A stretch of DNA of 51,454 nucleotides, taken from the IMG/VR virus record IMGVR_UViG_3300034788_000438, positions 1-51,454 of that record, one strand, 5' to 3'. Within the stretch, counting starts at the first letter, position 1; each line of letters opens with the position of its first letter. This document shows positions 599-48,362 of this stretch, in pieces. The notes under the pieces are model-generated. The model saw nothing but the letters and a program-made list of their open reading frames with translations, ran no database searches and had not been told where the DNA came from. The stretch comes from a virus. Taxonomy: Duplodnaviria > Caudoviricetes. Made by a program: the position numbers and the translations under genes.

Positions 599-600
599 GC

Positions 601-3462: not shown

Positions 3463-3467
3463 CGCGC

Positions 3468-6400
3468 ATGTTTGTTGATCAGAACGGGCAACCAGTTTCC
3501 GGCGACATCTTCACTCAGCCACCTGCTGACAATGACCCTGCACAGCCTGCGCCTGATTTTCGTGAGACTACCGGCGCGGCGTTTCGTCAGGAAAACATTC
3601 TTGGCTCATACTTCAGCAGCCCGACAACAGGTGTAGAGCCTGGCGTTGTTGAAGAGGGTTATAATCCTTGGGCCGATATTGAAGGCACCCCATACGAACC
3701 ATATTGGGACCGCTTCACTGATGTTCACAATTCACGGTACGCCACGGCGCTAAAGTCGCGCATCGATCAGGAGATTGAAGACCGGCGCACACTTGGCGCG
3801 GCAGGTTGGAAAGGTCTCGTTGCTGGCATGGGCGCGGGGCTTCTTGACCTACCCACGCTTATTCCTGGAGGCGTTGTCGTTCAGGGCGGCAAGGGAACCA
3901 TTACGGTTTCTAAGCTTGCACTTCAGACAGCAGCGGCGGGCGCGCTTGACGGGACAATCTCAGAAATCGGCTTGCAGCAGTCGCAGGAAACGCGCGGATA
4001 CACCGAAAGCCTGATTAACATCGGCGCTTCTACAATCCTCTCCGGCCTTCTTGGCGCAGGCGCAGGCAAGTTCTTGCAGGCTGGCGAGTTCAAACGACTT
4101 GAGGGACAGCTAGGAAACGACCTGACAGACCGGACACACGCGGACGCAGGCGCTATGGAAGAAGCCTATGACGCGATGATAGAAGGTCAGCGCGCAGGCG
4201 TAGGTGCTGAGGCGGCGCAGGCGTTTAGCAAAGAGGATCTGGAAATTCGCGGCAAGGCGGCCAATGCGCTGGGCAGTGTTGCGCCATTCAATCCCATGAT
4301 CGGCCTGACGCGCAGCGAAAGCGCGGCGGCGCGCAGTGTTGCGGCTAACCTGCCTGAAATGGGATTTGCGCTTAAGATGACAGGGCGCGGGGCATCTCAG
4401 CCGCAGGCAGTTGAAACCTATGTGAAGCAATGGACACTTGGCGCGGTGGGTTCTGCACTGGATGAAACCAACAGAATTTTCACTGCATACCGCAAGGCAG
4501 GCGGCAAGCTGGGCCGTGCGGAGTTCCACGCGCGGGCGGGCGATGCTATGCGCAACCTTGATGAGGACACGCTAGGCGATGACTTTGTGAGCAAGGCTGC
4601 ACAGGTCTGGCGTCGGCGTGTGTTTGATCCGCTCAAGAAAGAAGCGATTGACGGAGGCTTGCTGCCGGAAGACATCGATGTGTCCACGGCTGACAGCTAC
4701 TTCACGCGCATTTGGAACAAGAACAAAATCATTGCGCAGCAGGATAAGTTTGCATCCACGCTCAACCGGTATTTTAAACGCATCGTTGACGACCTCGTTG
4801 CGAAGGGTGAGTCCGAGGCTCTTGACGGCTTTGATTTTAAAAGCAGTTCTGACGTTGACGCATACGTGCGCGAGGCCACGGAAGCAGTGATTGCCAAGCT
4901 GACAGGCCGCGACACGTCAGAATCCCCGATGCACATTGTTCCGCTGACCCGTGGTCCGTTGAAAGAGCGGACGCTGAACATTCCAGACGCTGAGGTTTTG
5001 GAGTTCTTGGAAAACGACATTGAACTTGTGGGGCGGCAATACGCGCGCATCATGGGTTCCGATGTTGAGCTACAGCGCAAATTTGGGCGTGCCGACATGC
5101 GCGATCAGATTCAGGCGGTTGCCCGCGACTATGAGGAATTGCGCAACAAGGCTCTGGCAAACAAAGACCTGAGCGAGACTGACCGCGCCAAGCTGTTGCA
5201 GAAACTTGATGCTGACGAGCGCAAGGACGTTGACCGGATTGAAGGCTTGCGTGATCGCCTGCGCGGCACCTATTTGCTAGATGCCAACACATCCACGCCC
5301 GCGCGCGTGTTTCAGGGGGCCATGACCTTCAACTATCTGCGCACCATGGGCGGTGTTACCCTGTCCAGCCTGTCAGACGTTGGACGCCATGCGATGATGC
5401 ACGGCTTTGGGGCTGTGATGCGCGACGGAATTGCACCCCTTGTCAGCAACCTTAAGGGAGTGAGGCTGTCACGCGCCGACGCAAAGCTTGGGGGCACCAT
5501 TGCGGAGACGTTGCATAACACCCGCATGGCCACCATGGCGGAGCTTACAGATCCTTACGCCTACGGCCACCCTGTAGAGCGCTGGCTGAACAACGCCGCA
5601 ACGGGATTTTCCAAGGTCACAGGCATGCCGTATTGGAACGAGTTTCAGAAGACATTCGCTGCGCAACTTTCCCAAGCTCGCATTCTTCGCGCATCCAAGC
5701 AGGCGGTTAACAAAGGCTTCGATAGCCTGCCTAAGCGTGAGCAGCGCTTCTTGTCTCAAATTGGCCTTGGCCGTGGCGACCTTGAAACCGTTGGTGACTT
5801 CTACATCAAAGAAGGCATTGAAGAAGGTGGTTTGCCGATTGCGCGCCTTGACCGCTGGGGCGACACGGGGCGCGGCTATGAGGCGCGGCGTTTGTATATG
5901 GCTGCGGTCAATAAGTCCGTTGACACAACGATTGTGACAAAGGGTATCGGTGACACCCCGCTTGCGCTCGATCATCCGGTTGGTCGTGCAATCTTGCAGT
6001 TCAAAAGCTTTGCCCTCGCCTCTCACCAGCGTGTGCTAATGCGCGCGGCGCAGGACGTGGCAGACGCTCCGGTCTCTGTGCTTGCTGGCATGACAAACAT
6101 GATTGCCGTGGGTTCGTTCCTGTATTGGCTGAAGTCAAAGGAAAGCGGGCGCGACATCAGCGACAACCCCGGCAAGTTCTTGGCTGAAGGCATTGACCGC
6201 TCTGGCTTGGCTGCTGTGTTTATGGAGTTCAACAACATTGCAGAGCGCATCGGCGCACCTGGCTTGTACTCTGTTTCACAAGCCGCATTCCCTGAGCGCG
6301 ACCAAGGCGCACCGGCATCGCGTTACGCTATCCGCTCAACTATCGGCTCCCTTCTTGGCCCTACCTTTGGCCTTGCAAGTGACGTGACGCAGCTAATGGG

Positions 6401-6575
6401 CGTTGCTGGCACCAATGCAAGCGCCGCCGTTGGTTTGCGCGAGGATGGCCAGCCAATCACAGAAGGCGACATAAACGCCGCGCGGCGATTGCTGCCAGGC
6501 TCAACACTTCCCATCATTCGGTCACTGCTAGAGTACCTAGCACTGCCAGCCCTCAAGGAGAACCTTGTTCAATGA
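3468..6575 (+). CDS. large internal virion/ejection protein, gp16-like, cassette A
   Basis: 1035 aa, helical, no Cys; shares motifs (SLSDV, QFKSF, LxGPxxG) with 45562..48084; position after the SLT protein. Confidence 0.75.
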   Translation: MFVDQNGQPVSGDIFTQPPADNDPAQPAPDFRETTGAAFRQENILGSYFSSPTTGVEPGVVEEGYNPWADIEGTPYEPYWDRFTDVHNSRYATALKSRIDQEIEDRRTLGAAGWKGLVAGMGAGLLDLPTLIPGGVVVQGGKGTITVSKLALQTAAAGALDGTISEIGLQQSQETRGYTESLINIGASTILSGLLGAGAGKFLQAGEFKRLEGQLGNDLTDRTHADAGAMEEAYDAMIEGQRAGVGAEAAQAFSKEDLEIRGKAANALGSVAPFNPMIGLTRSESAAARSVAANLPEMGFALKMTGRGASQPQAVETYVKQWTLGAVGSALDETNRIFTAYRKAGGKLGRAEFHARAGDAMRNLDEDTLGDDFVSKAAQVWRRRVFDPLKKEAIDGGLLPEDIDVSTADSYFTRIWNKNKIIAQQDKFASTLNRYFKRIVDDLVAKGESEALDGFDFKSSSDVDAYVREATEAVIAKLTGRDTSESPMHIVPLTRGPLKERTLNIPDAEVLEFLENDIELVGRQYARIMGSDVELQRKFGRADMRDQIQAVARDYEELRNKALANKDLSETDRAKLLQKLDADERKDVDRIEGLRDRLRGTYLLDANTSTPARVFQGAMTFNYLRTMGGVTLSSLSDVGRHAMMHGFGAVMRDGIAPLVSNLKGVRLSRADAKLGGTIAETLHNTRMATMAELTDPYAYGHPVERWLNNAATGFSKVTGMPYWNEFQKTFAAQLSQARILRASKQAVNKGFDSLPKREQRFLSQIGLGRGDLETVGDFYIKEGIEEGGLPIARLDRWGDTGRGYEARRLYMAAVNKSVDTTIVTKGIGDTPLALDHPVGRAILQFKSFALASHQRVLMRAAQDVADAPVSVLAGMTNMIAVGSFLYWLKSKESGRDISDNPGKFLAEGIDRSGLAAVFMEFNNIAERIGAPGLYSVSQAAFPERDQGAPASRYAIRSTIGSLLGPTFGLASDVTQLMGVAGTNASAAVGLREDGQPITEGDINAARRLLPGSTLPIIRSLLEYLALPALKENLVQ

Positions 6576-9052
6576 CTGAAACAACCTTTGACAATGACAT
6601 TCACAACGCTCTCTTTTTTGAGGGAGCAAACGTCACGAATGGCAACTCCTTTTCTGAAAAGTGGTCAGACATCATTTTCTCTGCCCTTAAAGCAGGCGGG
6701 ATGCTTGATAATATTGTCATTTCAAACACGCCACCAACGCCCTCAATTCCGCCTGCGGACCCTACTCTTTGGCTGGATACGCGACCACACCCAGACCTTC
6801 CATCCGTTCTTAGACGCAGAAATCGGGTAACACTGGAATGGGACAAAGTTACGTATTCTGATTTTTTTGATAGTGAGACATCTTCTCTTACCGTTAAAAG
6901 CTTTGGTGTGGTTGCCAATGACCCCACGGCGGCGGTTGATAACGTTGCCGCCATCAATGCGGCAGAGTCTTGGTGTTCTGAAAACAATGTAGATTTGCTG
7001 TATGAGGGTTTGATTTACTGTGAAGGGCGCGTCATCTGGCAGTCTAATGTGCACCGTCGCGGCGTGGGCGTTGTGCCAAACCTGCGCCCTGCGCCTAGCA
7101 CCATCGGGGCAAGTACGCCAGAAGAGCTTTTGACAAACACGTCTGGCTGCGAGCTTCGATTTATTGGAACTGGCGTGAAAGACTTGGAATTTCCTTGGGT
7201 TACAAATGCTTCGCATTCAGGCTTTGGCCGCGCCAACCCGCGACGGCCCTACAGCAATGCGTATGACGCCCGGCTTGATTTGCGGGATTTCTCTAACCAA
7301 GATGCGGTGGGTGCGACACCTGCAACGCTGCGGCAAATGTCTGCGGCGGTTGTTATCAACAACAACACCTTGGATCGAATTTATTGCGAAGGCATCACTA
7401 TTAGGACGGCCTGCGATGGAACATCTTCTGACGGCGGGACTAGCCTTGAGGGTTACACGGTAACGGATCGCCTACCAGATTGGGCAGATTACGACATCGG
7501 TCTTCTTGTGGATAGTCCGTGGCAAGCAGAGTTTTATCGCTTGAATGTTATTGGGTATTGGAATGAGGCCGGTGTTTTGTGGTCTAGCTCTCGCAATGCT
7601 CCTGAGTTCAACGACCCAAGTGAGGCCTTTAGGGGGTACGCTGAAGGCAACCTTTGGCGTCATTGCCTTATTCAATCTGGCTGGGTGTATCGCACCGCAG
7701 ATAGCTGGCCTATTCTGGCTAAAGACGGGGCGGCAGATACGATTACAGTGCCTTGGACTGCATCGCATCAGTTTGAGCAGACAGGAACTATTCGCATTGG
7801 CGCTAGCTTTGTGAGCTTTGCCACTTACGACTACACATCTGTTACTTTTGACAACTCTGGTAGCGAACCCGTTCTTATCATTGCCTTAGATACAACAGAC
7901 ACAAGCGGTATTGAAGTTGGAGACAACGGGCATCACGTCTACTTTTCTGGCGGCGCGGGGCCTGCTGGCACAGCGGCGTATGACTGCGAGTTCTACGACC
8001 TCAGCCCTACATCGCTATTGCAGGAACCAGCCTATGATCGACCGTATCGGGCCGGTTGTGAAATTTCTGGCGGCGTAGCTAGGGCAATTAAGCTTTACAA
8101 CTGCATCCTAAACCCTCTGGGTTTTATGCCTATCGCTGTTGGATATGCGCCAGATCTTCAGCTATCCGATTGCTATTCAGAGCCGCGCAGGTTCCGTTTG
8201 AGCCATGGTGGGCCTCTGCAAGATCGTGGGGGCTTGTTTATTTGCGGGCCTGACAATGCCCACTTTGATTTGCTTGGCGATGATCACAACGGCAGCTTGT
8301 ACGCTCGCGGTTACTTCCAGTGGCCAGGGCTTAACATGGCCCCTCTTGTTCGCGTATCTTCAACTGGATGGTTTGGCAATCTGGATGGGGATTGGTTTAA
8401 CCCGCGTAGTTACACCCCGCCAATTGAAGGAAGTCTTCGCACAAGTCGTAATGTAGCCTATGAGGGCTTGCGCGGGTACGAGGTGTCTTTGGTTGCTCGC
8501 CTGACGGATGGGACTTTTTACCCCGTCGCTTCTGGCGATGGCGCTACTGGTGACACCAACTTTGGGCAAGTTGACATTGGCGGAAGTTTTGTAGACTTTT
8601 TGACCCTTGAGCAAGGCGGCACTGCGCGTTTGCGCGGGGATTTGGTTTTCACCACCACGGCTAGCCCTGATATTAAAAATATTCGCAACGACAATGACAA
8701 CATTGCAAGCCAAAGCGCTCCAACAGGAACGGGCGGCTTCCGGTGGGTCGAATCACTCATGCAGCTTAGGTTGTTTAGCACACTTGCTGCCGCGCTTCAG
8801 TTGCACCGTCTTGACTCTGGAAGGGTTGCAGAGTTCCGCCGCAATGGCGTCGTGTCTGGCCAAATTGAGGTATATACGGACCACACACGTTACACCGTGA
8901 ACAGTGACGGCGACTACCTAGGGCAAACGTTCACAACAGCGGGTCGCCCGACTGCGGTAAAGACGGGTTTTTATGGATATGACACCACTCTGGGCCAACC
9001 CGTTTGGAAAAGCGCGACTGGCTGGGTGGATGCTTCAGGGAATTCTGTGTAG
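6572..9052 (+). CDS. tail fibre/tailspike receptor-binding protein (beta-helix-like)
   Basis: 826 aa; TVKSFGVVANDPTAAVDNVAAINAA tailspike entry motif; C-terminal GFYGYDTTLGQPVWKSATGWVDASG. Confidence 0.75.
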   Translation: MTETTFDNDIHNALFFEGANVTNGNSFSEKWSDIIFSALKAGGMLDNIVISNTPPTPSIPPADPTLWLDTRPHPDLPSVLRRRNRVTLEWDKVTYSDFFDSETSSLTVKSFGVVANDPTAAVDNVAAINAAESWCSENNVDLLYEGLIYCEGRVIWQSNVHRRGVGVVPNLRPAPSTIGASTPEELLTNTSGCELRFIGTGVKDLEFPWVTNASHSGFGRANPRRPYSNAYDARLDLRDFSNQDAVGATPATLRQMSAAVVINNNTLDRIYCEGITIRTACDGTSSDGGTSLEGYTVTDRLPDWADYDIGLLVDSPWQAEFYRLNVIGYWNEAGVLWSSSRNAPEFNDPSEAFRGYAEGNLWRHCLIQSGWVYRTADSWPILAKDGAADTITVPWTASHQFEQTGTIRIGASFVSFATYDYTSVTFDNSGSEPVLIIALDTTDTSGIEVGDNGHHVYFSGGAGPAGTAAYDCEFYDLSPTSLLQEPAYDRPYRAGCEISGGVARAIKLYNCILNPLGFMPIAVGYAPDLQLSDCYSEPRRFRLSHGGPLQDRGGLFICGPDNAHFDLLGDDHNGSLYARGYFQWPGLNMAPLVRVSSTGWFGNLDGDWFNPRSYTPPIEGSLRTSRNVAYEGLRGYEVSLVARLTDGTFYPVASGDGATGDTNFGQVDIGGSFVDFLTLEQGGTARLRGDLVFTTTASPDIKNIRNDNDNIASQSAPTGTGGFRWVESLMQLRLFSTLAAALQLHRLDSGRVAEFRRNGVVSGQIEVYTDHTRYTVNSDGDYLGQTFTTAGRPTAVKTGFYGYDTTLGQPVWKSATGWVDASGNSV

Positions 9053-9079
9053 TGGCCGTTTTGTCAGTCAAATGTTGTA

Positions 9080-9096
9080 TGTGGCAAATTGTCGCA
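9080..9096. promoter_or_regulatory. 17-bp imperfect palindrome, RegA/RegR-like box
   Basis: TGTGGCAAATTGTCGCA in the intergenic gap upstream of 9139. Confidence 0.45.
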
Positions 9097-9138
9097 TTTT
9101 GTGGTTTAAAGTACGCAAGGCACAAAGGAGTGTGACAG

Positions 9139-11517
9139 ATGGCGTATAATCCCGATGGATTGAGTCTAAACGTAGACGGATTGTCTAGCCAGAGTTCACA
9201 GACCTGGCTTCTCGATGGAACCGACAGCATTACGGCGGCGCTCGCTGACGGCTACATTGATGATGCTGCGAAGCGCGGTGTGCGCGTTGGCGATGTTGTC
9301 CGCCATCGGCAGTGGACGGAGTTTGTTGATCAATTTGATAAGACGCCTCCCATTTTATCCGACACGATCACCAGTGTTTCAGCTATCAACGAAAACGGCG
9401 CAGCCACACTTATTGAGGCGACATCAAGTCCAATTTCTTGGCCAAATCGCGGCGATCTTTCAGGAGATTTGCAAGCGGGTTTAGTCCTCCCTGATGGAGC
9501 GTTAATGTCGGACGGGACTGTCTTCTATATCTACGAGTCGGGCGCAACTGCTATTGCGGATATGCCTAACGCACTCCCATTTGGGGTGACAAAGCCAAAT
9601 CACTTTGCTGAGAATACGGCTCCTGGATCAACGCCAATGCTTGCAGCGTTTCAATCTGCGACCAATTACGAGATTGAGAAGGTTGGCGCTGCTGTTGGTT
9701 ACTTTGGCAGGCCATCCCCTGTAGTTGAGTTTATTGGAAGTCAATCGTATTATATTGAGGGGGCTTTTTCTGCTGAAAGAGACGCTAGAAGCCTTAAGCT
9801 TCGCGGCCATGGGTGCCGATTGGTTACTGACTTCAATGGGCCTCTACTCAGCTTTGGGGATGCTGATGTTTTTACGGCAGACGCTGCGGGAACAGTTGCA
9901 ACATATGGTATCCACGTTGTTGGGTTTAAGTTTGTAAACACAAACCTTACAGCGGCAAGCTCCATTGCGATCCGTCTGGGTCGGTGCTGGAACGCTGTCA
10001 TTGATGACAACGTGTTTTATGATTTTTGGCTAGATGTTGACTGCCATGGCGTGGGGCATTCTTGGATTGAGAGAAACCAAGGCTTTCTGCGTGACAGGAC
10101 GGCCACAAAGCAGGCGTTCGCTCGCTTCCAAGGTGTGTATGCTTCAGACAATGATAAAATTGATGGGACGGGCATTCACTTTAACCACAATGAAATATCG
10201 GGGCTTCCAGCGGATAGCACTGCGCAGGCAAACTTTATTGAGATTAAATCTGTGGACGGGTTCTACTTTGCCCAAAACCACGCACAGCACATCAATTGTT
10301 TCTTGCGAGTTGAGCCAGCTGGGTCTGCGGATAACTACAAAAACAACCGGACATTCGACATCATCTCAAATGGTGGCAACTATGCGGATAACCCAGGCGG
10401 GAATCAAGTCCGCATCATTGGTACGGTTGCATATACCGGAGGGGGCGGGCGTCAAAACGGCCTTTATAAAAACGTCAAGCTAGACAGAAGCGATTGGATT
10501 AGGGGGGCGGGTGTAGCGCAATCGGGGGCCACGGTTAACGTCACGGATGGGGGAGGTTATGCGGATCAATTTGGCGGTCTGACCGGAATTGAATTGCGCG
10601 GACACTTTGACCAGCACACCGGCACGCCTATCTCCGTTCTTGGAGCGAACAGTGGGCGGCTGGAGTGTATAGGCCTTGAGATTGAGGCCCGCTTCTCTTC
10701 TGCCCGCAGCGGAAGTGGTGGCGGCTCAGGATGCGCATTTGTAGAGGCAAATTCCGTGTTTATCCATGACTGCATTGTCGGGGCTGAGGACAACGCGCCA
10801 GACTATGTATTCACGCTGAACCTCAGCAGCACGGGCGCAGACGCAGCGGTGACAATCACGGGCAATGACTATTCAAAGTCCACTTATGCGATTGCGCCGC
10901 ATAACATTAGCGCCCCTCTTGAGACGAGCGTCAGCGTATATGGCAACATCTCAAAAGCGGGCGCTGGGCGAATTATCAAAGAAGAGTTCCGCATCCTTGC
11001 TGATCAAGGGGAGGTTGCTATTCCTTGGACTTACTCTTTCCCAGGCAACGAAACTGGGATTGATGTGAAGATCCGAGCCCTTGGCCAGTCCCACCCGACG
11101 CAAGGCTTACAAGACAGAACCACTGGCTCCGAGGCTGCGGGAACGTTTTATCGCAACGCTGCGGCGGCAACATCCAACATCGGGGGCTTTGGGTCTCAAA
11201 TTTACCTGAACACAAACATCGGCACCAATGACGCGCCCGTCTGGCCTGTTCTCATGACCGGAGATGCATGGCCAACAACAACCGCCGTTAACGCGGGGGA
11301 TGTGTACGTGGCAGGCGGCAATGTGTATCTTGTGATTGTGGGCGGCACCACTGGCGCAAGTCAACCTACCCACACCAACGGCTTCGCAAGCACAGGCACT
11401 GAAACATCTGCATATGTGGGGGCTGAAAGCGTGAACACGATTAGCGCGGTTCTAGGTGGCAACACCTCGACCCGCATGTATTGGACGGGCGAAGTTGAGA
11501 TTCTGCAAGCCCGATAA
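9139..11517 (+). CDS. fibre/depolymerase: decoration-like N-terminal domain, beta-helix, C-terminal CBM5/12-like module
   Basis: 792 aa; AAAGGAG RBS; PNHFAENTAPGSTPMLAAFQSA entry motif; Asn/Gly-rich repeats; WPTTTAVNAGDVYVAGGNVY...PTHTNG. Confidence 0.65.
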   Translation: MAYNPDGLSLNVDGLSSQSSQTWLLDGTDSITAALADGYIDDAAKRGVRVGDVVRHRQWTEFVDQFDKTPPILSDTITSVSAINENGAATLIEATSSPISWPNRGDLSGDLQAGLVLPDGALMSDGTVFYIYESGATAIADMPNALPFGVTKPNHFAENTAPGSTPMLAAFQSATNYEIEKVGAAVGYFGRPSPVVEFIGSQSYYIEGAFSAERDARSLKLRGHGCRLVTDFNGPLLSFGDADVFTADAAGTVATYGIHVVGFKFVNTNLTAASSIAIRLGRCWNAVIDDNVFYDFWLDVDCHGVGHSWIERNQGFLRDRTATKQAFARFQGVYASDNDKIDGTGIHFNHNEISGLPADSTAQANFIEIKSVDGFYFAQNHAQHINCFLRVEPAGSADNYKNNRTFDIISNGGNYADNPGGNQVRIIGTVAYTGGGGRQNGLYKNVKLDRSDWIRGAGVAQSGATVNVTDGGGYADQFGGLTGIELRGHFDQHTGTPISVLGANSGRLECIGLEIEARFSSARSGSGGGSGCAFVEANSVFIHDCIVGAEDNAPDYVFTLNLSSTGADAAVTITGNDYSKSTYAIAPHNISAPLETSVSVYGNISKAGAGRIIKEEFRILADQGEVAIPWTYSFPGNETGIDVKIRALGQSHPTQGLQDRTTGSEAAGTFYRNAAAATSNIGGFGSQIYLNTNIGTNDAPVWPVLMTGDAWPTTTAVNAGDVYVAGGNVYLVIVGGTTGASQPTHTNGFASTGTETSAYVGAESVNTISAVLGGNTSTRMYWTGEVEILQAR

Positions 11518-11569
11518 CGACAAAGCAACACATGGGAGAAAGGTAAACCATGACTGCGCTAGGTGTGAA

Positions 11570-11992
11570 ATGATAAGGCAAATTCTAAAAACTTTGACCA
11601 CACCTAGCAGTTATGATGGGGACTGGTTTGCATACGCTAAAAGCCAAATTTCACATACAAGCATCGGCGTCTTTCTTGTGGCTTTGATTAGCTATGGTGC
11701 CTTTATGGTTGACGGCGAAATCCCCTACAAGATGCACGTGTTTTTTGTCATTGCCTTTATTTATGCGTCAAAGGAGATATTCCTAGACAAGTGGAATGGC
11801 TTTGACACCGTGGAAGATTTTATGTTTGTGGTGGTCTACGGTACAGGTGGAACGCTTTACTCGTTTACAGAAAGACAAGCTGGCCTTTCAGAAGTGGTGT
11901 TTGACTTGGAGAAGTCAGCCCCGTTTTTTGCTGTGTGTTGTGTGCATTTGCTGGCAGGGGTTTTATACCGTTTGAAGGAATCGACAAAATGA
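11570..11992 (+). CDS. multi-pass membrane protein preceding the lysis cassette
   Basis: About four hydrophobic segments; start at 11570 supported by the homologous start at 51295. Confidence 0.65.
   Translation: MIRQILKTLTTPSSYDGDWFAYAKSQISHTSIGVFLVALISYGAFMVDGEIPYKMHVFFVIAFIYASKEIFLDKWNGFDTVEDFMFVVVYGTGGTLYSFTERQAGLSEVVFDLEKSAPFFAVCCVHLLAGVLYRLKESTK
11603..11729 (+). repeat. 127-bp exact repeat, copy 1 (= 51328..51454)
   Basis: Direct comparison; identity begins right after an A/G mismatch at 11602/51327. Confidence 0.95.
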
Positions 11993-20306: not shown

Positions 20307-20676
20307 GCCAATTGGCGTTTTCCAAATCGGGATATTCAACACACAGGTTGCGGTTTTTGATAGTTTGAAGAAACTACAGAAGCACCACACAAAAACGCTT
20401 GGATTTTCAGCAATTGAAGGCCTCAACCCTGCGTCCTACGGCATGTGCGTCAAGGAAACCGTAGATGACGGGACGGTTTATTTTTACTTGTATATTGGGG
20501 AAGATGCCAGCCAATACACCCGAATCCATGAATGCAGCCACTTGGTTGATTGGGTCATGGAAAATTGCGGTGTTCCGGTTGACGTGAACAACACAGAGAT
20601 CCGCGCCTACATGCTGGCGGAATGCTGTCAGCTTCTTGACGAAGTTTTGCAGGATCATTGGGGGTCGTCACAATGA
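20299..20676 (+). CDS. hypothetical protein with HExxH motif
   Basis: IHECSHLV...NTEIRAY, metallopeptidase-like. Confidence 0.6.
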   Translation: MSEPIGVFQIGIFNTQVAVFDSLKKLQKHHTKTLGFSAIEGLNPASYGMCVKETVDDGTVYFYLYIGEDASQYTRIHECSHLVDWVMENCGVPVDVNNTEIRAYMLAECCQLLDEVLQDHWGSSQ

Positions 20677-21056
20677 CACACACAGTCACGCTTCCATGGC
20701 CCAGCAAGCACCTAAGCCGCAACGCGCGGGTGCACTGGGCTGTCAGATCCAAAGCAACCAAGGCGGCGCGTACACTGGCGTTCTGGGAGGGCCGCATGGC
20801 AAAACTCCCACCGTCACCGGATGCGGTCATGACCTTCACCTTTCACCCGCCTGACAATCGCCGCAGAGACGCGCACAACATGCCTGACATGATGAAGGCA
20901 TACATTGACGGGCTGGCTGACGCGATGGGTGTGGATGACATAAATTTTCAATGCCGGTTTCCCAGCAAATTCGCAGAGGTCCGCAAGGGTGGCCAGGTTG
21001 TGGTTGAGATTACCGCGCCGAGCGTTCTTGTGGAGCACAGAGGGCAAATCACATGA
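20673..21056 (+). CDS. rusA: RusA-like Holliday junction resolvase
   Basis: TLPWP...FHPPDNRRRDAHN...KAYIDGLADAMGVDD. Confidence 0.8.
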   Translation: MTHTVTLPWPSKHLSRNARVHWAVRSKATKAARTLAFWEGRMAKLPPSPDAVMTFTFHPPDNRRRDAHNMPDMMKAYIDGLADAMGVDDINFQCRFPSKFAEVRKGGQVVVEITAPSVLVEHRGQIT

Positions 21057-21238
21057 CTGACCCCGACGCACACGCCCACCTGATCGACGTCAAAACCATG
21101 TTCTGCAAGAAGTGCGGGCAGCACATGGAAGACCACGCAGCGCGCATCGATCCTTGTCCTGGCGGCGGTGTGGTTGTTGGCATATCCCACATTCTTCTGC
21201 GCAATAGGTTCAAGGAAGAAACGGGGGTTGCGTTGTAG
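21053..21238 (+). CDS. hypothetical protein
   Basis: 61 aa; CKKC; ATGA overlap. Confidence 0.55.
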   Translation: MTDPDAHAHLIDVKTMFCKKCGQHMEDHAARIDPCPGGGVVVGISHILLRNRFKEETGVAL

Positions 21239-21269
21239 GGTGTGTGTCGCAGGGGTGGGTTTGCAGGTT

Positions 21270-21800
21270 AGCAGAATCCACTTTGCACAGTTTGCAAACT
21301 CTCTGTTGGATTTGCTGGGGAAATGGCTTACAAAAGAAAGCGGCGGCGCGAGACTGTGAATCTCAAGCGCCGCCTTGGAAGGTGTACCGTCTGGCAGGAT
21401 TTGCACACCTTCGACAGCAAATATACCCAAACACGGGGCGCGTTGCAACAATCCTGTCTGACTTTTGGCCCTTAGAAAGCAAAGGGTATGGCAGATGGCT
21501 CACTGTTCTAAGCAAATGAGCAAAAACAAATCGCGGGCAATGCTTCCCTTTGTACCCCGTGGCCGTGGAGTTGAACGAGCAACCCTCGGAAGGTAAAGCG
21601 CCAAATTTTGCGCCTGTGTTGGAATTTGACCCCCAATATGGCGTTTTTTGGTAAGGTCGCCTGGAAAAGACCTTGGCAGGTGTTGGGAAACCAGCAGGGC
21701 GAGAGCCAAAGGAAATGAGTACTGGGCGAAAGCTGGGCGTGGTCTGCCCCCGTGGTTAAGGTAGGTGGCTATCTCCACGGCAGGAAAAGGGGGAGCTGTA
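21270..21800 (+). ncRNA. candidate structured non-coding RNA / origin region
   Basis: About 580 bp without a convincing ORF; many stems and three GNRA-capped hairpins. Confidence 0.45.
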
Positions 21801-21820
21801 TCTAATGGAAGGAAAGACGG

Positions 21821-21976
21821 ATGAAAGATGAAGATCTGCAAGTAGAGCGATGCAGGATTGCATTGTATGATCTGGGTTCAAGAGAGGGTGCTACAGTCCA
21901 TGGAGTGATCAAGCAATTAAAACGGGACGGCTTCACGGCTGATCAGATTTCAAAAGCTGCGGATAAGACGCTTTAA
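21821..21976 (+). CDS. hypothetical 51-aa protein (MKDEDLQVER...)
   Basis: Manual translation; purine-rich RBS. Confidence 0.5.
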   Translation: MKDEDLQVERCRIALYDLGSREGATVHGVIKQLKRDGFTADQISKAADKTL

Positions 21977-21981
21977 CCCCC

Positions 21982-21998
21982 CGCGACATTTTGTCAAC
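21982..21998 (+). promoter_or_regulatory. RegA-like box upstream of 22055
   Basis: CGCGACATTTTGTCAAC, then TTCCCC-N17-CAGGAT. Confidence 0.5.
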
Positions 21999-22054
21999 TT
22001 CCCCACCCTTCCGCTCTAAGGCAGGATGGGGAGAGAGTAACAAGGAGAGAGATT

Positions 22055-22453
22055 GTGGAGATTGATATTTTCAATTACGTCAATGACGCAGAAATCAAAG
22101 AGGCTATTCTGGACGGCATCAAGAATTATGCGTCATCAAATGCAGAGCGTGTTATTGCGAATGCGGGGCATCATTTAGCCACGGACATCGTGAATGAAAA
22201 GCTTGGCGTAAATGCTGAGGTTGACATTGCTCTTAAGGCTAAGGAAGTGATCAGTAAGCTTTCTAGCTACACTCTTTTTGATGTCGGGGGTTATGGTCGG
22301 CCACCGTCAGATGCGCGAAAGCTTTTAGATCATTGCGTTCGGGAAAACAAAGACGATCTTTCCCAAGCGGTAAAGTCTGCCATGCACAACCTTTCAAAGC
22401 GTGACGTGATGGAAATCATTAAAGAGGGCAAGTTTAAAATGGTGGTTGAGTGA
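22055..22453 (+). CDS. hypothetical protein
   Basis: 132 aa; AGGAGAG RBS. Confidence 0.7.
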   Translation: MEIDIFNYVNDAEIKEAILDGIKNYASSNAERVIANAGHHLATDIVNEKLGVNAEVDIALKAKEVISKLSSYTLFDVGGYGRPPSDARKLLDHCVRENKDDLSQAVKSAMHNLSKRDVMEIIKEGKFKMVVE

Positions 22454-22456
22454 GCC

Positions 22457-22939
22457 ATGAATGACCTCTTTCAATGCACTTGCCCCCACTGCGGCCAACC
22501 GCTTCCAGACCAAAGCGTCACTGAAACCACGAAAGACGGAAGCTTTGCAAAATTCTGGGCTAGCATCCCCAAGGGAACAACAAAGGGCAGCAAGAAAAAC
22601 GCAGAGAAGGCATGGCACAAGCTTACAGCGCAGGAGCAGGCCCTAGCCGCAGAGCGCGCCCCCGTGTTCTACACGCTAACGCCAGATGAGCGTTTCGGTG
22701 CGCTGGGTTTGCATGTGTCCACGTTTCTCAACGGCGGTCACTACGAAGAGGAAGTGATAGCTGAGAAGATGAAGCGCCGCCAGGAGAAGGCCGCATACGA
22801 TCCGCGCCAGATGGCAGCTAAAAACATCAAGTCGGGCAAGCGCTTTCTATGCACAAACATAACCCCCACCAAGGCCCGCACCCTCATTGCAGATGGCCTT
22901 GTGACAGAGGACGAATGTAGAAAGGTAGGAGTGTTGTAA
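22457..22939 (+). CDS. replication initiator/replisome-organiser C-terminal-domain protein
   Basis: FAKFWASIPK...KKNAEKAWHKL...HVSTFLNG motif typical of phage initiator C-termini; N-terminal CPHC. Confidence 0.6.
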   Translation: MNDLFQCTCPHCGQPLPDQSVTETTKDGSFAKFWASIPKGTTKGSKKNAEKAWHKLTAQEQALAAERAPVFYTLTPDERFGALGLHVSTFLNGGHYEEEVIAEKMKRRQEKAAYDPRQMAAKNIKSGKRFLCTNITPTKARTLIADGLVTEDECRKVGVL

Positions 22940-23301
22940 TGGCTAAAACATGGAGAGAACGCACAAAGGCGCAGAAGCTGGCAGCGGTGAAGCGTTTGGC
23001 AAAATCAGACTGCGGGAAAGTGGACGCTTCTAAAAAGCTGGGTATTCACCTGACCACGCTTTACAACTTTCTGCACAAGCATGACATTGAGTGGACGTTT
23101 AAGGCAAACCCAGGCCGCAAGGAACAGAATTTCCCAACAAGCCAAATCGCCGCGTTTTACGAAGACGGCAACACGATGAAACAGACTGCGGAGCATTTTG
23201 GCATTTGCGTTCACAGCGTCAGGAATCGCCTAGAGCGCGCAGGCGTCACCCCTCGCCCTAGCGCGGCGCAGATCAACGCCACACTGGCGCAACACACATA
23301 G
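22939..23301 (+). CDS. double HTH DNA-binding protein
   Basis: DASKKLGIHLTTLYNFL and TMKQTAEHFGICVHSVRNRL. Confidence 0.75.
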   Translation: MAKTWRERTKAQKLAAVKRLAKSDCGKVDASKKLGIHLTTLYNFLHKHDIEWTFKANPGRKEQNFPTSQIAAFYEDGNTMKQTAEHFGICVHSVRNRLERAGVTPRPSAAQINATLAQHT

Positions 23302-23303
23302 GG

Positions 23304-23320
23304 CGCGACAACTCGCCGCA
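23304..23320 (+). promoter_or_regulatory. RegA-like box upstream of ssb
   Basis: CGCGACAACTCGCCGCA, then TTCCTA-N17-CAGTAT. Confidence 0.55.
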
Positions 23321-23375
23321 TTCCTAGGCACCCAACAACAGGCCAGTATAGGGCCACACACAAAGGAGAGACACA

Positions 23376-23795
23376 ATGCAGAAACTGATTATTGCAGGGA
23401 CGGTTGGGCGCGACGCAGAATTGCGCCAAACAGGCCGGGGCGATCCGGTCCTAGGGTTCTCACTTGCCATCGACAACGGCAAAGACCAGCAGGACAACAA
23501 GCGTGACGCCACATGGTACGATTGTTCAATTTGGGGAAAGCGAGCAACAGCGCTGCAATCCTACATCACCAAGGGTTCTAAGCTGACTCTGATCGGGCGT
23601 CCAACTGCGCGCGAGCATCAAGGCAAGGTTTACATGGGCATTTCCGTGGATGACCTGACGTTCATGGGCGGCGGTCAACAAGGTGGCCAGCAGGGCGCCG
23701 GCTACGATCAAGGCGGGGGGTATGGGCAAGGTGGTCAGCCGAGCAGTCGCGACATGGATGATGAGATCCCGTTTGCTCCTGAGTGGCGCGCATGA
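23376..23795 (+). CDS. ssb: single-stranded DNA-binding protein
   Basis: IAGTVGRDAELR...TWYDCSIWGK; Gly-rich linker; DDEIPF tail. Confidence 0.95.
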   Translation: MQKLIIAGTVGRDAELRQTGRGDPVLGFSLAIDNGKDQQDNKRDATWYDCSIWGKRATALQSYITKGSKLTLIGRPTAREHQGKVYMGISVDDLTFMGGGQQGGQQGAGYDQGGGYGQGGQPSSRDMDDEIPFAPEWRA

Positions 23796-32978: not shown

Positions 32979-34622
32979 ATGCCTAGCGTCTCGGAGATTA
33001 TGATTAAGCAGAGCGAGATGGAGGCTCTGCGAGGGAATTGGGAAAGCCTGTGGGAAGGTGTTGCACAGCTTGTGCTACCCCGCTCCGATGACTTCCGCAA
33101 GAAGCACTCCCCAGGCACGCAGCGAAACCAGCAGCAATACGATGCGTTTCCTATGCAGGCGCTCGACAAGTTCGCAGCAGCTATTGAAGCGGGGCTTATG
33201 CCGCGTAACGCGCTGTGGCACAGCCTGAGTACAGGCGACGATGAGCTTGACGAAAACCACGAAGTGAAGATCTATCTTGAGGAATTGAACCAGCTTCTGT
33301 GGGATACGCGTTACAGTCCGCGCGCCAACTTTGCCAGTCAAGCGCATGAAAACCGCATTAACATCGGAGCATTTGGCACCGGTGCATTTCTGATTGAGTC
33401 ACAGGAAGATGGCAACGGCGTTCAGTACAAGGCAATTCACCTCAGCGAGCTATTCATTGCATCCAACTGGATGGGATTGATTGACGTGGTGCACCGCAAG
33501 TTTGACCTTACAGCGCGTCAGGCCATGCAGTTGTTTGGCAAGGACACGCCGGAAAAAATCCGCCACAAGTTTGAAACCGGTGGTGTGCATGAAAAGTTTG
33601 AGTTTTTGCACGCGGTAATGCCGCGCGAGGACTACGACAAAGAAGCCGTTGATGACCGTGGCAAGCGGTTTGTTGGCGTCTATATCTTCGTTGAGGGCCA
33701 GCAGAAGGTGCGCGAGGAGGGCTATTACGAAATGCCCTACACCGTGTCTCGATACTCTGTGTCGATCCGCGAGAACTATGGCCGCTCCCCAGCAATTCAG
33801 CTTTTGCCTGACATCTCCATGCTTAACGAGATGCGCCGCACCACGATTGAGGCGGCGAACATGGCGGTTGATCCGCCGACGCTGCTTTACGATGACGGGA
33901 TTAGCGAGTTTGACCTAACACCAGGTGCGCGGAACTACGGCGCGCTTGATGAGCAAGGTCGCCCACTGGCTGCGCCGTGGAACCCAGGTGTGAACGTTGG
34001 GCTTGGCCTTGAGATGATCAGCGACACACGCAACCAGATTGATGATGGGTTCATGGGGATTTACTTCCGCGTCCTGATCGAGAACCCGCAAATGACAGCC
34101 ACGCAGGCGCTTCTTATTGCACAGCAGCAGGGGCAAATGTCAGCTCCGGTAATTGGTCGCTTGCAGACAGAGTGGCTTGGGCCAATGATCCGGCGCGAAA
34201 GTGCAATCCTCTATCGTCAGGGCAAACACCCGCAAATGCCGGAAATCCTTCGTGAGCGCATTGCATCGACTGGCAAGGGCGTAAACATTGAATACGTGTC
34301 GCCACTGACCCGCGCTGCGCGTTCGGAAGAGGCTGTGGCTATTCTTCGCACATTCGAAACGCTGGCCCCAATCGCACAGATTGACCCGACTGTGTATGAT
34401 CAGTTTGACACTAAAGAGGTGGCGCGTATTGTTTCTGAGGTTAATGGCGTTCCAGCTAAGGCACTGAAAGACCCGTCGCAAGTTGAGGCAGAGGAAGACC
34501 AGCAGGCAGCACAAGCGGCCATGGGCGCAATACTTGATGCCGCACCAGTTGCAGCCGACACAGCCAAAACGCTGGCGGAAGCGCAGGCAGCATCACAACA
34601 ACCAGCACCGGTGGCTAGCTAA
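32979..34622 (+). CDS. portal (head-tail connector) protein
   Basis: 547 aa; FGTGA, ENYGRSPA, MTATQ motifs of T7 gp8/BPP-1-type portals. Confidence 0.92.
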   Translation: MPSVSEIMIKQSEMEALRGNWESLWEGVAQLVLPRSDDFRKKHSPGTQRNQQQYDAFPMQALDKFAAAIEAGLMPRNALWHSLSTGDDELDENHEVKIYLEELNQLLWDTRYSPRANFASQAHENRINIGAFGTGAFLIESQEDGNGVQYKAIHLSELFIASNWMGLIDVVHRKFDLTARQAMQLFGKDTPEKIRHKFETGGVHEKFEFLHAVMPREDYDKEAVDDRGKRFVGVYIFVEGQQKVREEGYYEMPYTVSRYSVSIRENYGRSPAIQLLPDISMLNEMRRTTIEAANMAVDPPTLLYDDGISEFDLTPGARNYGALDEQGRPLAAPWNPGVNVGLGLEMISDTRNQIDDGFMGIYFRVLIENPQMTATQALLIAQQQGQMSAPVIGRLQTEWLGPMIRRESAILYRQGKHPQMPEILRERIASTGKGVNIEYVSPLTRAARSEEAVAILRTFETLAPIAQIDPTVYDQFDTKEVARIVSEVNGVPAKALKDPSQVEAEEDQQAAQAAMGAILDAAPVAADTAKTLAEAQAASQQPAPVAS

Positions 34623-34909
34623 TGAGCAATCAAAGCGCACGGGCGCAGCAGAAGCTTGACCTGATCCGGTCCTATCGTTCCATCTTCTGCAATGAGAAGG
34701 GCGAGCTAACGCCAGATGCGGAAGCGGTGTTGCGTGACCTTGAGAAGGAGTGCGGGTGGATGCCCAAAGCGCTTCCAACCATTTCCACCGGCGCTATTGA
34801 CCCAATCCGCATTGCTGCAGACACAGAAAAGCGCCGCGTATATGCCCACATTCGAGCCATGCTATTTGGCGACGTTATGCACCTTCGTCGCACAACTGAG
34901 GGCGAGTAG
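34622..34909 (+). CDS. Bbp19-like protein
   Basis: YRSIF...AEAVLRDL...EKRRVYAHI between portal and scaffold. Confidence 0.7.
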   Translation: MSNQSARAQQKLDLIRSYRSIFCNEKGELTPDAEAVLRDLEKECGWMPKALPTISTGAIDPIRIAADTEKRRVYAHIRAMLFGDVMHLRRTTEGE

Positions 34910-34951
34910 CTTTCAGCTTTTTAGGTGCCTCAACTGAAAGGACAAGACCAA

Positions 34952-35797
34952 ATGTCAGATGACGTAAACGCGGCCCCCGATGTGGGCCAAGCCGCACCAG
35001 CCCCAGAGGCTGCGCCCGTTCCGGCGGCTGCACCTGTGGCAGAAGGCGCGGCACCTGCGAATTGGTTTGATGGCTTCGAGAACTCGGAGCTTAAGGGCTA
35101 TGTTGAAACCAAGGGGTTTTCTAACCCAGAAGCATTGGCAAGCAGCTACCAAAACCTTGAGAAGCTGCGTGGCGTACCGGCGGAGCAGTTACTGCAACTG
35201 CCTTCCGACTTGACGGACGCTAACGCAATGGCCCCCGTCTATGAGCGCTTGGGTCGCCCAGAGACAGCCGAGAGTTACACCAACGTGCTTGGTGACAGCT
35301 TTGATGATGGCGTGTTTAAGAATGTTGCGGCGCAGGCTCACCAGCTTGGCCTTGGCGATGCACAGTTTCAGGGCCTGCAAAAAATCATGGCAGAGCAATC
35401 CGCCGCCGTGCTTGAAGCGCAGGAGGTCGAGACAGCTGAGGCATTTGACAAGTGGAAGTCCGAGAACGAACAGGGCTTTCAGAATGCCGCAAAGGTTATG
35501 TCCGATGTTGGCATGAGCGAAGAGAACCTTGAGCTTCTACTCTCTGGCGACAAGACAGCGCTGTATGGCTTCCTTGCGCAGATTGGCGAGCGCTCCGGTG
35601 AACCCAACGTGATCCAGGGTGAAAGTCCGCGCGGTGAAGGGTTTGGCATGACACCCACAGCAGCCAAGCAAAAGATCAACGAGTTGATGGCTGACAAGAC
35701 ATTCCAGGAGCAATACTACTCGGACAACAAGAAGGTTCGCGCCGAGGCAATTTCCCGCATGACCGCGCTGCATGAAGCAGCAGCGAAGCAAGGTTAA
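34952..35797 (+). CDS. capsid scaffolding protein
   Basis: Acidic, Ala/Pro-rich N-terminus; LASSYQNLEKL; LGRPETAESY. Confidence 0.8.
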   Translation: MSDDVNAAPDVGQAAPAPEAAPVPAAAPVAEGAAPANWFDGFENSELKGYVETKGFSNPEALASSYQNLEKLRGVPAEQLLQLPSDLTDANAMAPVYERLGRPETAESYTNVLGDSFDDGVFKNVAAQAHQLGLGDAQFQGLQKIMAEQSAAVLEAQEVETAEAFDKWKSENEQGFQNAAKVMSDVGMSEENLELLLSGDKTALYGFLAQIGERSGEPNVIQGESPRGEGFGMTPTAAKQKINELMADKTFQEQYYSDNKKVRAEAISRMTALHEAAAKQG

Positions 35798-48084: not shown

Positions 48085-48095
48085 AGGAATGAACA

Positions 48096-48362
48096 ATGGC
48101 CGACAAGTTTGAAAATTATCGCGCGGAATTGAACAGTCCATACGCCGAGGCGGCGGACATTGCGCCAAGTGACAGCACGGATTTATCGACAACGACCCGC
48201 GCCATTTACATCGGCGGCGGGAGCGGCGTTCTGGTTGCCACTATGAAAAGCGGGGCAACTGTAACCTTTAGTGGACTGGTGACAGGATCAGTTTTGCCAA
48301 TCCGTGCGAGGCGCGTGCTGGCGACAGGAACAACCGCAACCGATTTGGTTGCTCTTTGGTAA
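48096..48362 (+). CDS. spike base protein, RcGTA Rcc01079-like
   Basis: SP...IAPSDSTDL...TRAIYIGGG...LPIRARRVLATGTTATDLVALW. Confidence 0.8.
   Translation: MADKFENYRAELNSPYAEAADIAPSDSTDLSTTTRAIYIGGGSGVLVATMKSGATVTFSGLVTGSVLPIRARRVLATGTTATDLVALW

Follow-up and report, generated by a model that had tools for sequence, protein, structure and literature searches.

The DNA analysed here, called the window throughout, is the complete IMG/VR virus record IMGVR_UViG_3300034788_000438 (51,454 bp; Duplodnaviria, Caudoviricetes), and the element of interest is the gap between open reading frames (ORFs) at positions 21239-21820, upstream of putative replication genes. Our main new result is that this gap very probably holds a conserved antisense/sense RNA cassette, unmatched in Rfam, which is found in marine podoviruses, including a cultured member. 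We favour its interpretation as an antisense-gated RNA switch that would be tied to the onset of replication or of middle-gene expression.

In the proposed model, two non-coding RNA genes that face each other make up the gap as a self-contained cassette. Synthesis of a highly folded, untranslated RNA of ~470 nt would start at ~21341 from a plus-strand promoter (21306-34) that is weak or regulated and is preceded by TTTGCA repeats, and a near-consensus minus-strand promoter (21448-20) would generate an antisense RNA of ~82 nt. The latter would be perfectly complementary to the initial ~73 nt of the long RNA, which comprise hairpins H1 and H2. Within the long RNA, the H2 loop would pair with its cognate downstream box (21450-62). 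The antisense RNA would compete with the box for H2, causing the rest of the long RNA to refold, and facing transcription might add interference. The active fold of the long RNA would most likely license the onset of the replication or middle programme, the long RNA being in most members the putative leader of an operon that starts with replication or DNA-metabolism genes. We lean slightly towards the joint proposition that the cassette is real, that the antisense RNA gates the fold of the long RNA and that the unit somehow serves replication or middle-gene onset.

Predicted antisense and long RNAs

We collected the cassette in 14 records, namely the window and 13 others, at one copy per record, which represent 12 distinct variants (G and L labels hereafter denote records and loci, respectively; G002 holds L014 and L017, and G409 holds L039). 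An nhmmer search matched positions 21272-21487 of the window in three more records (E 3e-11 to 8e-6) among the loci reached through the family of the rep-like protein encoded 3' of the gap, and an exact-pattern scan with the 16-mer AAAGAAAGCGGCGGCG and the far stem arm retrieved 12 IMG/VR loci. Using the module of a relative (L041) as the query, we also found it in the cultured Sulfitobacter phage phiGT1, where it lies in a 641-nt unannotated gap (34364-35004 of MT584811.1), with a resolvase-like nuclease gene on one side and an HNH gene on the other. phiGT1 is lytic and circularly permuted, packages its DNA by a headful mechanism and has no integrase (PMC7427195). Its genome announcement of 2020 is silent on this gap (PMC7427195), and a term search of a 2023 paper on the phage showed that 'intergenic', 'promoter', 'antisense' and 'non-coding' are not used there.

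Other searches returned no further members. The window's own gap used as a DNA query had no match in the phage and plasmid collections, an exact-pattern scan on the variable inner part of the hairpin gave no matches, RusA as an anchor yielded no loci, and the cassette was not found by a pattern scan of 401 sampled Alphaproteobacteria genomes. The loci collected with the 132-aa neighbour (A1) as an anchor (L003-L012, including a Qipengyuania prophage) are devoid of a homologous gap, the genes being packed there.

On the minus strand, the promoter hexamers TTGCAA (21448-43) and TATATT (21425-20), spaced by 17 nt, are followed by hairpin H2 (21378-21412; GAAGGTGT...ACACCTTC, with an apical loop of the CUUUGGCAGG type), by hairpin H1 (21342-21374) and by GCTTTCTTTTGT. 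This succession of a promoter, a stem-loop and an intrinsic terminator therefore points to a gene for an ~82-nt RNA (~21413-21332, minus strand), as also predicted by a covariance model and by folds. The RNA would consist of a 5' stem-loop, complementary to H2, a short linker and a terminator hairpin, complementary to H1, followed by GCUUUCUUUUGU. H1 is thus predicted to serve twice: it would open the long RNA as its first hairpin, and its complement on the minus strand would form the stem of the antisense terminator. H2 would be the target of the antisense 5' stem-loop. A preliminary description of the gap, made from the sequence alone, had listed the 21342-74 hairpin and missed both the minus-strand promoter and the U-tract that follows this hairpin on the minus strand.

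The minus-strand site at 21448-21420 is the sole promoter-like call in a consensus scan of positions 20500-22600. The pattern TTGnnn-17/18-TAnnn[TC] is present at the homologous place in 13 of the 14 records (it is absent from L037), against 51 of 1286 background pieces; it counts against these figures that both this pattern and that of the sense promoter described below were defined after the alignments had been seen. The hexamers and the spacer length are kept and the spacer sequence diverges. These promoter readings assume a sigma-70-type host polymerase, and we presume that TATATC and TAGAAA fit alphaproteobacterial -10 boxes.

Per-sequence folds of the 11 variants tested all show the 5' stem-loop, a 2-4-nt linker, the terminator hairpin and the U-tract, over 81-87 nt. 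The covariance model of the short RNA (R1), built on the structure that we propose, recognizes all 13 sources at 48-87 bits, with 73.3 bits for the window (21328-21414, minus strand), and in addition phiGT1 at 66.7 bits. With pair counts taken on the alignment fitted to this model, 88.7% of cells are paired, compared with 66.5% in shuffles, and the covariation amounts to 0.59, compared with 0.18 after shuffling (0 of 500 shuffles reach the observed value) and 0.08-0.15 when the partners are slid. All seven outer pairs of H2 show compensatory double changes, with 94% of cells paired, and the loop motif persists across stems of different sequence. In H1 the outer 7 bp are invariant and five inner pairs are doubly changed, as illustrated by the GAGA/TCTC, TCC/GGA, GAGTG/CACTC and GACCC/GGGTC versions. 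The U-rich tract that follows H1 on the minus strand is invariant. Owing to indels, RNAalifold recovered the hairpins only in part from plain MAFFT alignments, and we relied on per-sequence folds and covariance models instead.

The divergent L037 locus scores 48.5 bits with the short-RNA model (1453-1547, minus strand). It has a longer 5' stem-loop and no antisense promoter by pattern, and only ~60 nt separate the module from a primosomal/replication-initiation gene; it may represent a reduced form of the cassette.

The long RNA is predicted to extend over ~470 nt on the plus strand (21341-21813), both ends being placed from sequence features. Its promoter-like site, TTGGAT-17-TACAAA (21306-21334), would place the 5' end of the RNA at the base of H1, around 21341, and the short RNA would therefore be complementary to its first ~73 nt. 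The pattern TTGnnn-17/18-[TC]AnnA[AT] is found at the same distance from H1 in all 14 records, with diverged spacers, compared with 73 of 1940 background pieces of equal size, and the TG of the sense -35 is invariant (alignment A3). The preliminary description had reported two promoter-like hexamer pairs, and this one is kept in place. The other (21465-93), considered as a second plus-strand promoter, is not conserved as such, since its TTGAC-like -35 is conserved and its -10 is not; we rejected it and now read this segment as a region upstream of the antisense promoter or as part of the RNA fold.

Just 5' of the sense -35, the window has three TTTGCA repeats (21260-65, 21282-87 and 21291-96), and three or four such repeats occupy the same place in G002, L031, L040, L041, L042 and phiGT1. 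Overall they are found in seven of the 12 variants, and in L043 they are located at 3487-3520. L032, L033-35, L036 and L039 lack them and have other sequences there, notably an inverted repeat, TATGCGCT.CACGCAA, in L036 and L039. The TTTGCA repeats are possible candidate regulator-binding sites, and this distribution suggests that the upstream repeats might represent exchangeable operator sets for different regulators.

Covarying helices extend beyond the antisense region. Helix H4 (21417-21446) overlies the antisense promoter (-10, spacer and -35) and is therefore outside the antisense RNA. In a MAFFT alignment made without fitting to any model, its outer stem (GCAA/TTGC) is 97.5% paired with three of four pairs doubly changed, and its inner stem (CCC/GGG) is 90% paired, again with three of four pairs doubly changed. 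Hairpin H3 (21468-21487; GCCCTT...AAGGGT), which is preceded by a conserved CTGAYTTTTGR, interchanges CCCTT/AAGGG, CGCTT/AAGCG and CCATTT/AAATGG, with 78% of cells paired and three of five pairs doubly changed in the model-fitted alignment. Seven relatives share the next ~330 nt, with within-group nhmmer E-values of 1e-27 to 1e-83. RNAalifold predicts 63 pairs for these seven leaders, 26 of which are doubly changed; 88.6% of cells are paired, compared with 76.7% in shuffles, and the covariation is 0.372 versus 0.178, which also beats the slid control, although the controls flatter this fold because the structure was predicted on the same alignment. Many pairs of these helices are invariant G-U, which correspond to A-C mismatches on the opposite strand. 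The variation among the seven leaders is without 3-base periodicity (0.43/0.39/0.49), every frame contains stops, and no ORF is common to all seven; an ATG at alignment column 73 opens 13-48 codons, whose ends differ.

RNAalifold also draws a long-range closing helix, CUGAUUUUUG / CGGAAAGCGG, in the seven-leader alignment. This helix, the antisense RNA against the 5' region and the autonomous, orientation-free character of the cassette recall type I toxin-antitoxin systems of the hok/sok kind, in which a folded toxin mRNA of ~400 nt, closed by a helix between its 5' and 3' ends, is paired with a short antisense antitoxin transcribed from a strong promoter. However, no conserved small toxin ORF was found in the seven leaders, as seen from the absence of periodicity and the stops in all frames, no peptide of the gap appears hydrophobic by eye, and the closing helix shows no double changes. 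A toxin-antitoxin function thus appears very improbable, and we consider it close to refuted.

Two parts of the window's leader recur in those of its relatives, namely the start, consisting of CTGACTTTTGG and H3, and the end motif. When this leader was searched against the profile of the seven leaders, only positions 21453-21486 matched (E 0.036). The 3' end motif, GGAAAAGGGGGAGCTGTATCTAA (21782-21813), closes the conserved block 8 nt before the ATG at 21821, and aligns with GCGGAAAGCGGAACTRTG.C.AA at the leader ends of G006-G008 and others. It includes the G5 tract, which is not conserved, as other leaders have GCGGAAAGCGG there. Across variants, 410-560 nt separate the predicted RNA start from the first ORF. 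Within the window-type leader, a terminator-like hairpin (21609-21643, plus strand) followed by U6 (21644-49) was detected by a hairpin-plus-U scan (dG -11.8 to -13.8), and a near-palindrome, GCGCCAAATTTTGCGC (21596-21613, inverted repeat), is located just 5' of it.

The two RNAs appear to be linked by a box, AATCCTGTCTGAC (21450-21462, plus strand), an inverted repeat located just past the antisense -35 and 60 nt 3' of the H2 loop, which is complementary to this loop and its 3' side (21389-21401). Loop and box vary jointly across variants. The cognate H2-box duplexes have a mean energy of -15.2 kcal/mol, compared with -10.9 kcal/mol for non-cognate ones, and in the 11 variants the cognate box ranks 1, 1, 1, 3, 4, 1, 2, 2, 1, 2 and 7, i.e. 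first in five and second in three. None of 100000 random pairings reached the cognate mean, in a test with 10 variants from which L042, a duplicate of L041, was dropped. As the box and the antisense loop have the same sequence sense, both would compete for H2. Altogether, we infer that both RNAs are made, with approximately the ends given above, and that they pair.

Conservation and exchange of the block

We aligned public contigs to positions 20600-23400 of the window. A 36.4-kb contig from another study has six differences over 21047-21348, all of them within a 61-aa ORF directly 5' of the gap, such that 21239-21348 is identical, and it differs at 4 of 344 positions over 21481-21824. Its rep-like gene has 21 differences in 359 positions, and other sequence stands in place of RusA, the 51-aa ORF and the 132-aa gene. 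In the same contig, the middle of the gap (21349-21480) is exchanged for 126 other letters. Similarly, in the 36.6-kb IMG/VR record G002 the gap is 99.1% identical over 331 nt, compared with 87.3% over the rep-like gene; 21167-21345 is identical and 21346-21480 diverged. In relatives with a ~99%-identical block, the flanking genes are replaced or only 87-94% identical. The only stretch exchanged between such near-identical relatives (21346-21480) encompasses the H1 inner stem, H2, H4 and H3, and each hairpin, both minus-strand hexamers and their 17-nt spacing are retained in the exchange. Contigs of a third study have RusA joined directly to 21242 and break again at 21824, such that joints at 21824 are seen in contigs of two studies other than that of the window; the edges of the block (21242 and 21824) are therefore mosaic joints. 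This comparison supports the view that the block is a functional non-coding element, better conserved than the flanking genes.

The 61-aa ORF, with a zinc-ribbon-like CxxC...C spacing by eye and without a family match, is variably present: G002 and the 36-kb contig harbour it, the latter with its six differences, and a contig from another study, in which RusA is joined straight to the block, has 28 nt instead. Record G002 (36,595 bp) is classed as 'linear'; its first and last 99 nt are the same bar one mismatch, and because of this terminal repeat we consider the assembly circular. Its break falls inside the conserved leader (window 21494-21591), apparently at an arbitrary position.

The conservation pattern bears on the possibility that the block acts at the DNA level only, as an origin or protein-binding region with cruciform or single-strand signals, or as a mosaic recombination linker, without functional RNA. 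The covariation of hairpins is strand-symmetric, both block edges are mosaic joints and the TTTGCA repeats resemble protein-binding sites. Nevertheless, the minus-strand -35, -10, 17/18-nt spacing and U-tract are conserved in the correct order, the invariant G-U pairs of the leader helices would be A-C on the other strand, and a linker would not retain ~20 compensatory pair changes, which makes a DNA-only element improbable.

The exchanged segment might alternatively specify an autonomous regulatory or immunity RNA pair acting in trans. The short RNA of a resident phage would silence the cognate long RNA of a related phage, providing exclusion or an advantage in competition, or the long RNA would be a decoy or sponge. 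In this respect, a type-specific variable segment lies between near-identical flanks, and a 165-nt contig from run X5 that covers 21323-21467 with two differences shows that window-type and other-type segments co-occur in one sample set. The orientation of the cassette is also independent of its neighbours, and the antisense promoter is strong and near consensus. However, there is no known target outside the cassette, none having been searched for, and the conservation of the H2 loop motif across types would weaken specificity. The phages also look lytic: no tyrosine integrase was found in five records (serine recombinases were not searched for), and phiGT1 is lytic (PMC7427195). We regard a trans-acting pair as quite unlikely.

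Taken by itself, the sequence of the gap would make a weak case. Inspection of the sequence confirmed each feature of the preliminary description at its given coordinates, namely, in addition to the hexamer pairs, the palindrome AGTTTGCAAACT (21289-21300), H1 as GGCGGCGC-GAGA-ctgtgaa-TCTC-aa-GCGCCGCC (21342-21374), AAGGTC/GACCTT (21653-58 and 21669-74), the plus-strand GNRA-capped hairpins TGTTGG-gaaa-CCAGCA (21681-96), GGC-gaga-GCC (21698-21707) and GGC-gaaa-GCT (21725-34), CCGTGG/CCACGG (21750-55 and 21775-80) and the G5 tract (21789-93). Its description of the block as non-coding also agrees with our data, as the longest ORFs of the gap (91 aa on the plus strand and 113 aa on the minus strand) have no PHROG or Pfam match, and none of the six frames is open (6/5/3 and 1/6/2 stop codons per frame on the plus and minus strands, respectively). 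By contrast, the block is not exceptionally hairpin-dense. The whole-gap fold is within chance, with z-scores of -1.27 for the plus strand (10 of 100 shuffles as good) and -1.10 for the minus strand (16 of 100). Of thirteen 120-nt segments compared with the genome background, only 21321-21440 (3.6th percentile for the plus strand and 0.4th for the minus strand) and 21601-21720 (2nd percentile, plus strand) are unusual. GNRA loops had been taken as a sign of a plus-strand RNA, but the four capped hairpins compare with 1.7 +/- 1.2 in 1000 dinucleotide shuffles (P 0.077); three of them (21681-21734) are inside the 99%-conserved part and thus offer no variation for testing.

The search of Rfam 15 gave no matches at the gathering score in the whole window, and nothing convincing to E 10 in 21100-22100, where the best match (E 0.49) is to an unrelated snoRNA model. 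No tRNA or tmRNA was found, nor were iterons in the gap. With fold z-scores and a GNRA count that do not exceed chance expectation, and with no iterons, Rfam matches or tRNA, the case from sequence alone is weak. The initial observation is real, yet not significant by itself, and in our assessment the decisive evidence is conservation, not hairpin density. Covariation among homologous regions, which the preliminary description had proposed to look for, is present in the short RNA, in H4 and H3 and in the leader of the relatives. Its proposal of a large plus-strand non-coding RNA is thereby supported by comparative evidence, i.e. an ORF-free block conserved above its flanking genes, the covarying H4 and H3 helices and a covariation-supported fold of the relatives' leaders.

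The same data address the possibility of chance hairpins in a spacer or a decayed gene, with which the whole-gap z-scores, the GNRA count and the lack of an Rfam match would agree. This is scarcely credible given that the gap is better conserved than the flanking genes and that 13 other records share the covarying architecture, and no translated similarity was found in the related loci. We consider the chance-hairpin reading refuted by conservation above the flanks, the covariance-model matches and covariation.

Genetic context and putative output of the cassette

In 10 of the 12 variants, transcription of the long RNA would run into a block led by replication or DNA-metabolism genes, which encode a rep-like protein (A2), a helicase, a ParB-like protein, a methyltransferase or a primosomal protein. 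The genes 5' of the cassette are usually those for RusA, or for NinB and an HNH protein. This orientation fits an antisense-controlled leader, as in the model that we favour. Granted a real cassette, control of downstream gene expression is a tentative possibility for its output.

A number of observations weigh against the favoured model. The cassettes of L036 and L039 are inverted relative to both flanks, with the long RNA facing the end of a convergent gene and the short-RNA unit pointing into HNH/packaging genes. The gene immediately downstream varies among the phages, and there is no conserved leader peptide. Folding energy does not separate the strands, the minus strand being more stable in five of the 12 variants, and the excess of G-U over A-C (25:6) was counted on a model-fitted alignment. 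Regarding the sense promoter, its -10 (TACAAA/TAGAAA) lacks the usual final T, and it was not called by the consensus scan. The leader body of the window (~21490-21780) is not alignable to other leader types, and among near relatives it is too similar for covariation, such that the fold of this part is without comparative support. There is also no conserved attenuator, since a hairpin with a U-run was found in only one of the 11 leaders scanned, that of the window (L034 and L035, near-copies of L033, were left out, and L038 was cut short). Lastly, about seven public runs from at least three studies contain part of the stretch, none of those listed being recorded as RNA, and an RNA run of the same sample as the best DNA source (X1) gave a single 152-nt contig, at 22030-22181, outside the gap. 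This RNA-library contig is identical to the window and covers the upstream region and the start of the 132-aa gene; DNA carry-over is possible.

The inverted members deserve attention. L039 (in G409) has a dCTP deaminase gene and phrog_474 at one flank and HNH at the opposite one; the context of L036 was read from its ORFs only, with no family scan. The leader body of both is conserved with that of L040-42 (E 1e-27 to 1e-32), though it heads no gene. Because it is inverted relative to its neighbours in two of the 12 variants, the cassette looks self-contained, and this inversion therefore argues against a simple role as an operon leader. The retention of the long RNA where it heads no gene gives the cassette an autonomous look, which raises the odds of a ColE1-like primer/origin or of another RNA role. 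Assuming that the cassette is real, we hold a primer or origin to be doubtful, and another autonomous RNA role unlikely.

A ColE1-like primer, already suggested in the preliminary description, would imply that the long RNA is a pre-primer that hybridizes near its 3' end (~21780-21813), is processed and is extended by a host polymerase, the antisense RNA setting the frequency of initiation and type specificity. The geometry fits, with an antisense RNA against the 5' end of a 450-480-nt untranslated RNA whose length is kept while its sequence diverges, and the conserved facing promoter and terminator of the antisense RNA, which the preliminary description had not seen, strengthen the analogy. 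Consistent with this proposal also are the single copy per genome, an orientation free of the neighbours (two of 12 inverted), the conservation of the leader body where it heads no gene (L036/L039 versus L040-42), a swapped specificity segment between 99%-identical flanks, as in incompatibility determinants, the purine-rich 3' motif with its G5 tract and the fact that the scanned ORFs of the window revealed neither a DNA polymerase nor a primase or helicase. On the other hand, nothing in the data points to an R-loop, to a cleavage site or to a start of DNA synthesis, other leaders do not share the G5 tract, the GC skew of the leader (0.02-0.14) is no higher than that of the flanks, and no AT-rich unwinding stretch, iterons or Rfam RNAI match were found. 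In addition, G409 encodes its own primase/helicase, and in the inverted members the origin would fire head-on into genes. We know of no ColE1-type replication outside gamma-proteobacteria. In our view a primer/origin function is rather unlikely.

Comparisons with described systems place the cassette close to several of them. In ColE1, RNA I (~108 nt, three stem-loops) is antisense to the 5' end of the ~500-nt untranslated RNA II and acts at a distance by refolding it. The cassette similarly has facing promoters and a predicted short, terminated antisense RNA complementary to the 5' end of a long untranslated RNA (13-14 of 14 records), the binding of which is expected to refold the long RNA at a distance, and its antisense/target segment varies between close relatives. 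Unlike ColE1 RNA I, its short RNA has ~82 nt and two stem-loops. The cassette has no sequence or Rfam match, nothing points to an R-loop, to cleavage by RNase H or to DNA synthesis, and it is found in lytic podoviruses of marine bacteria, usually running into genes. In IncI-alpha/IncB plasmids, the Inc RNA competes for a target loop whose pseudoknot partner is beside the rep ribosome-binding site and is coupled to a leader peptide. The cassette resembles them in that the loop of its target hairpin is complementary to a downstream box of the same RNA, for which the antisense RNA would compete, but the box is ~360 nt before the first ORF and not at a ribosome-binding site, and there is no conserved leader peptide.

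Likewise, pT181/pIP501 attenuation and the alphaproteobacterial repABC ctRNA rely on a constitutive antisense RNA against the leader of a replication gene. Like these systems, the cassette would direct an antisense RNA against a leader in the control region of a replicon, and repABC shows that this principle is used in alphaproteobacterial replicons. Unlike in pT181/pIP501, a conserved intrinsic terminator was not found in the sense leader (one of 11 leaders); the leader is also several times longer, and no Rfam ctRNA family was matched.

Among phage systems, lambdoid PR'-6S RNA-tR' units combine a strong constitutive promoter and a short terminated RNA after nin-type genes. The short RNA unit of the cassette similarly has a strong promoter and a terminator, follows NinB or RusA genes, and in L036 and L039 points to HNH/packaging genes. 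It differs from them in that it points away from the late genes in 10 of the 12 variants and that a Q-like protein was not identified. The lambda oop RNA overlaps the end of the cII coding gene. Like oop, the cassette's short leftward RNA is located just 5' of replication genes and faces rightward transcription, in the window and in 10 of the 12 variants. Unlike oop, it would end at ~21332, ~90 nt past the stop of the upstream ORF (21238), without a 3'-overlap, and would target a dedicated structured non-coding RNA; no homology was found between the two. In lambda, promoter cross talk between pO of oop and the facing pR is reported to tune replication initiation (PMC3985674).

Genome setting and significance

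The window has a T7-like structural module, with genes for the portal, the major capsid protein, tail tubes A and B and internal virion proteins, and its early genes, coding for NinB, an exonuclease, RusA, SSB and a DNA methylase, are lambdoid in kind. Among the window ORFs scanned, we saw no RNA polymerase, DNA polymerase, primase or helicase, and a repressor-like Pfam match was not found among 18 ORFs. The gap is part of a rightward block, with the genes for RusA (20658-21056) and the 61-aa protein (21053-21238) on its 5' side, and those for proteins of 51 aa (21821-21976, with an ATG at 21821), 132 aa (22055-22453) and 160 aa (22457-22939) on its 3' side, followed by genes for a helix-turn-helix protein (22939-23301), SSB and a methylase. 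The helix-turn-helix protein and the 160-aa protein are nearby candidates for binding to the TTTGCA repeats. The 160-aa rep-like protein has weak matches to the C-terminal part of replication-initiation/primosomal PHROGs (E ~1e-6), and its role in replication is putative. The members of its family (alignment A2) have an N-terminal CxxC motif, and Pfam DUF3106 is matched in four of nine.

The host is deduced only from phiGT1 (Sulfitobacter), from the Qipengyuania prophage that shares the 132-aa gene and from the marine or other aquatic labels of the metagenome runs that contain the stretch.

The last 172 nt of the record (51283-51454) repeat an internal segment (11558-11729) at 94.8% identity, the window carries two unrelated sets of genes for internal virion proteins and tail fibres (38-11517 and 40834-51071), and the genomes of relatives are 36.6-40 kb long. 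Because of the terminal repeat, of these genome lengths and of the duplicate, unrelated virion/tail gene sets, the record may consist of a ~39.7-kb circular genome (~11730-51454) to which ~11.6 kb of the ejection/tail module of a co-occurring strain was joined through the shared stretch.

Antisense-RNA control units of such a design are textbook knowledge for plasmids and a few temperate coliphages. In the titles and abstract openings that a literature search returned, we found no published antisense-RNA control unit in marine lytic podoviruses. A structured non-coding RNA of ~470 nt that is better conserved than the surrounding genes is unusual for a 40-kb phage. If the primer/origin proposal were true, lytic headful podoviruses of marine Alphaproteobacteria (roseobacter group) would have a ColE1-style RNA-primed origin with antisense control of copy number or timing, and the exchangeable antisense/target segment would define replication 'incompatibility types' for phages that co-occur. 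More generally, the cassette is situated at the boundary between the recombination and replication modules, and because of this position and since no polymerase, primase or helicase was seen in the phage, it may explain how such phages start or time their replication. This question is directly testable, since the cultured pair phiGT1 / Sulfitobacter sp. HGT1 carries the cassette.

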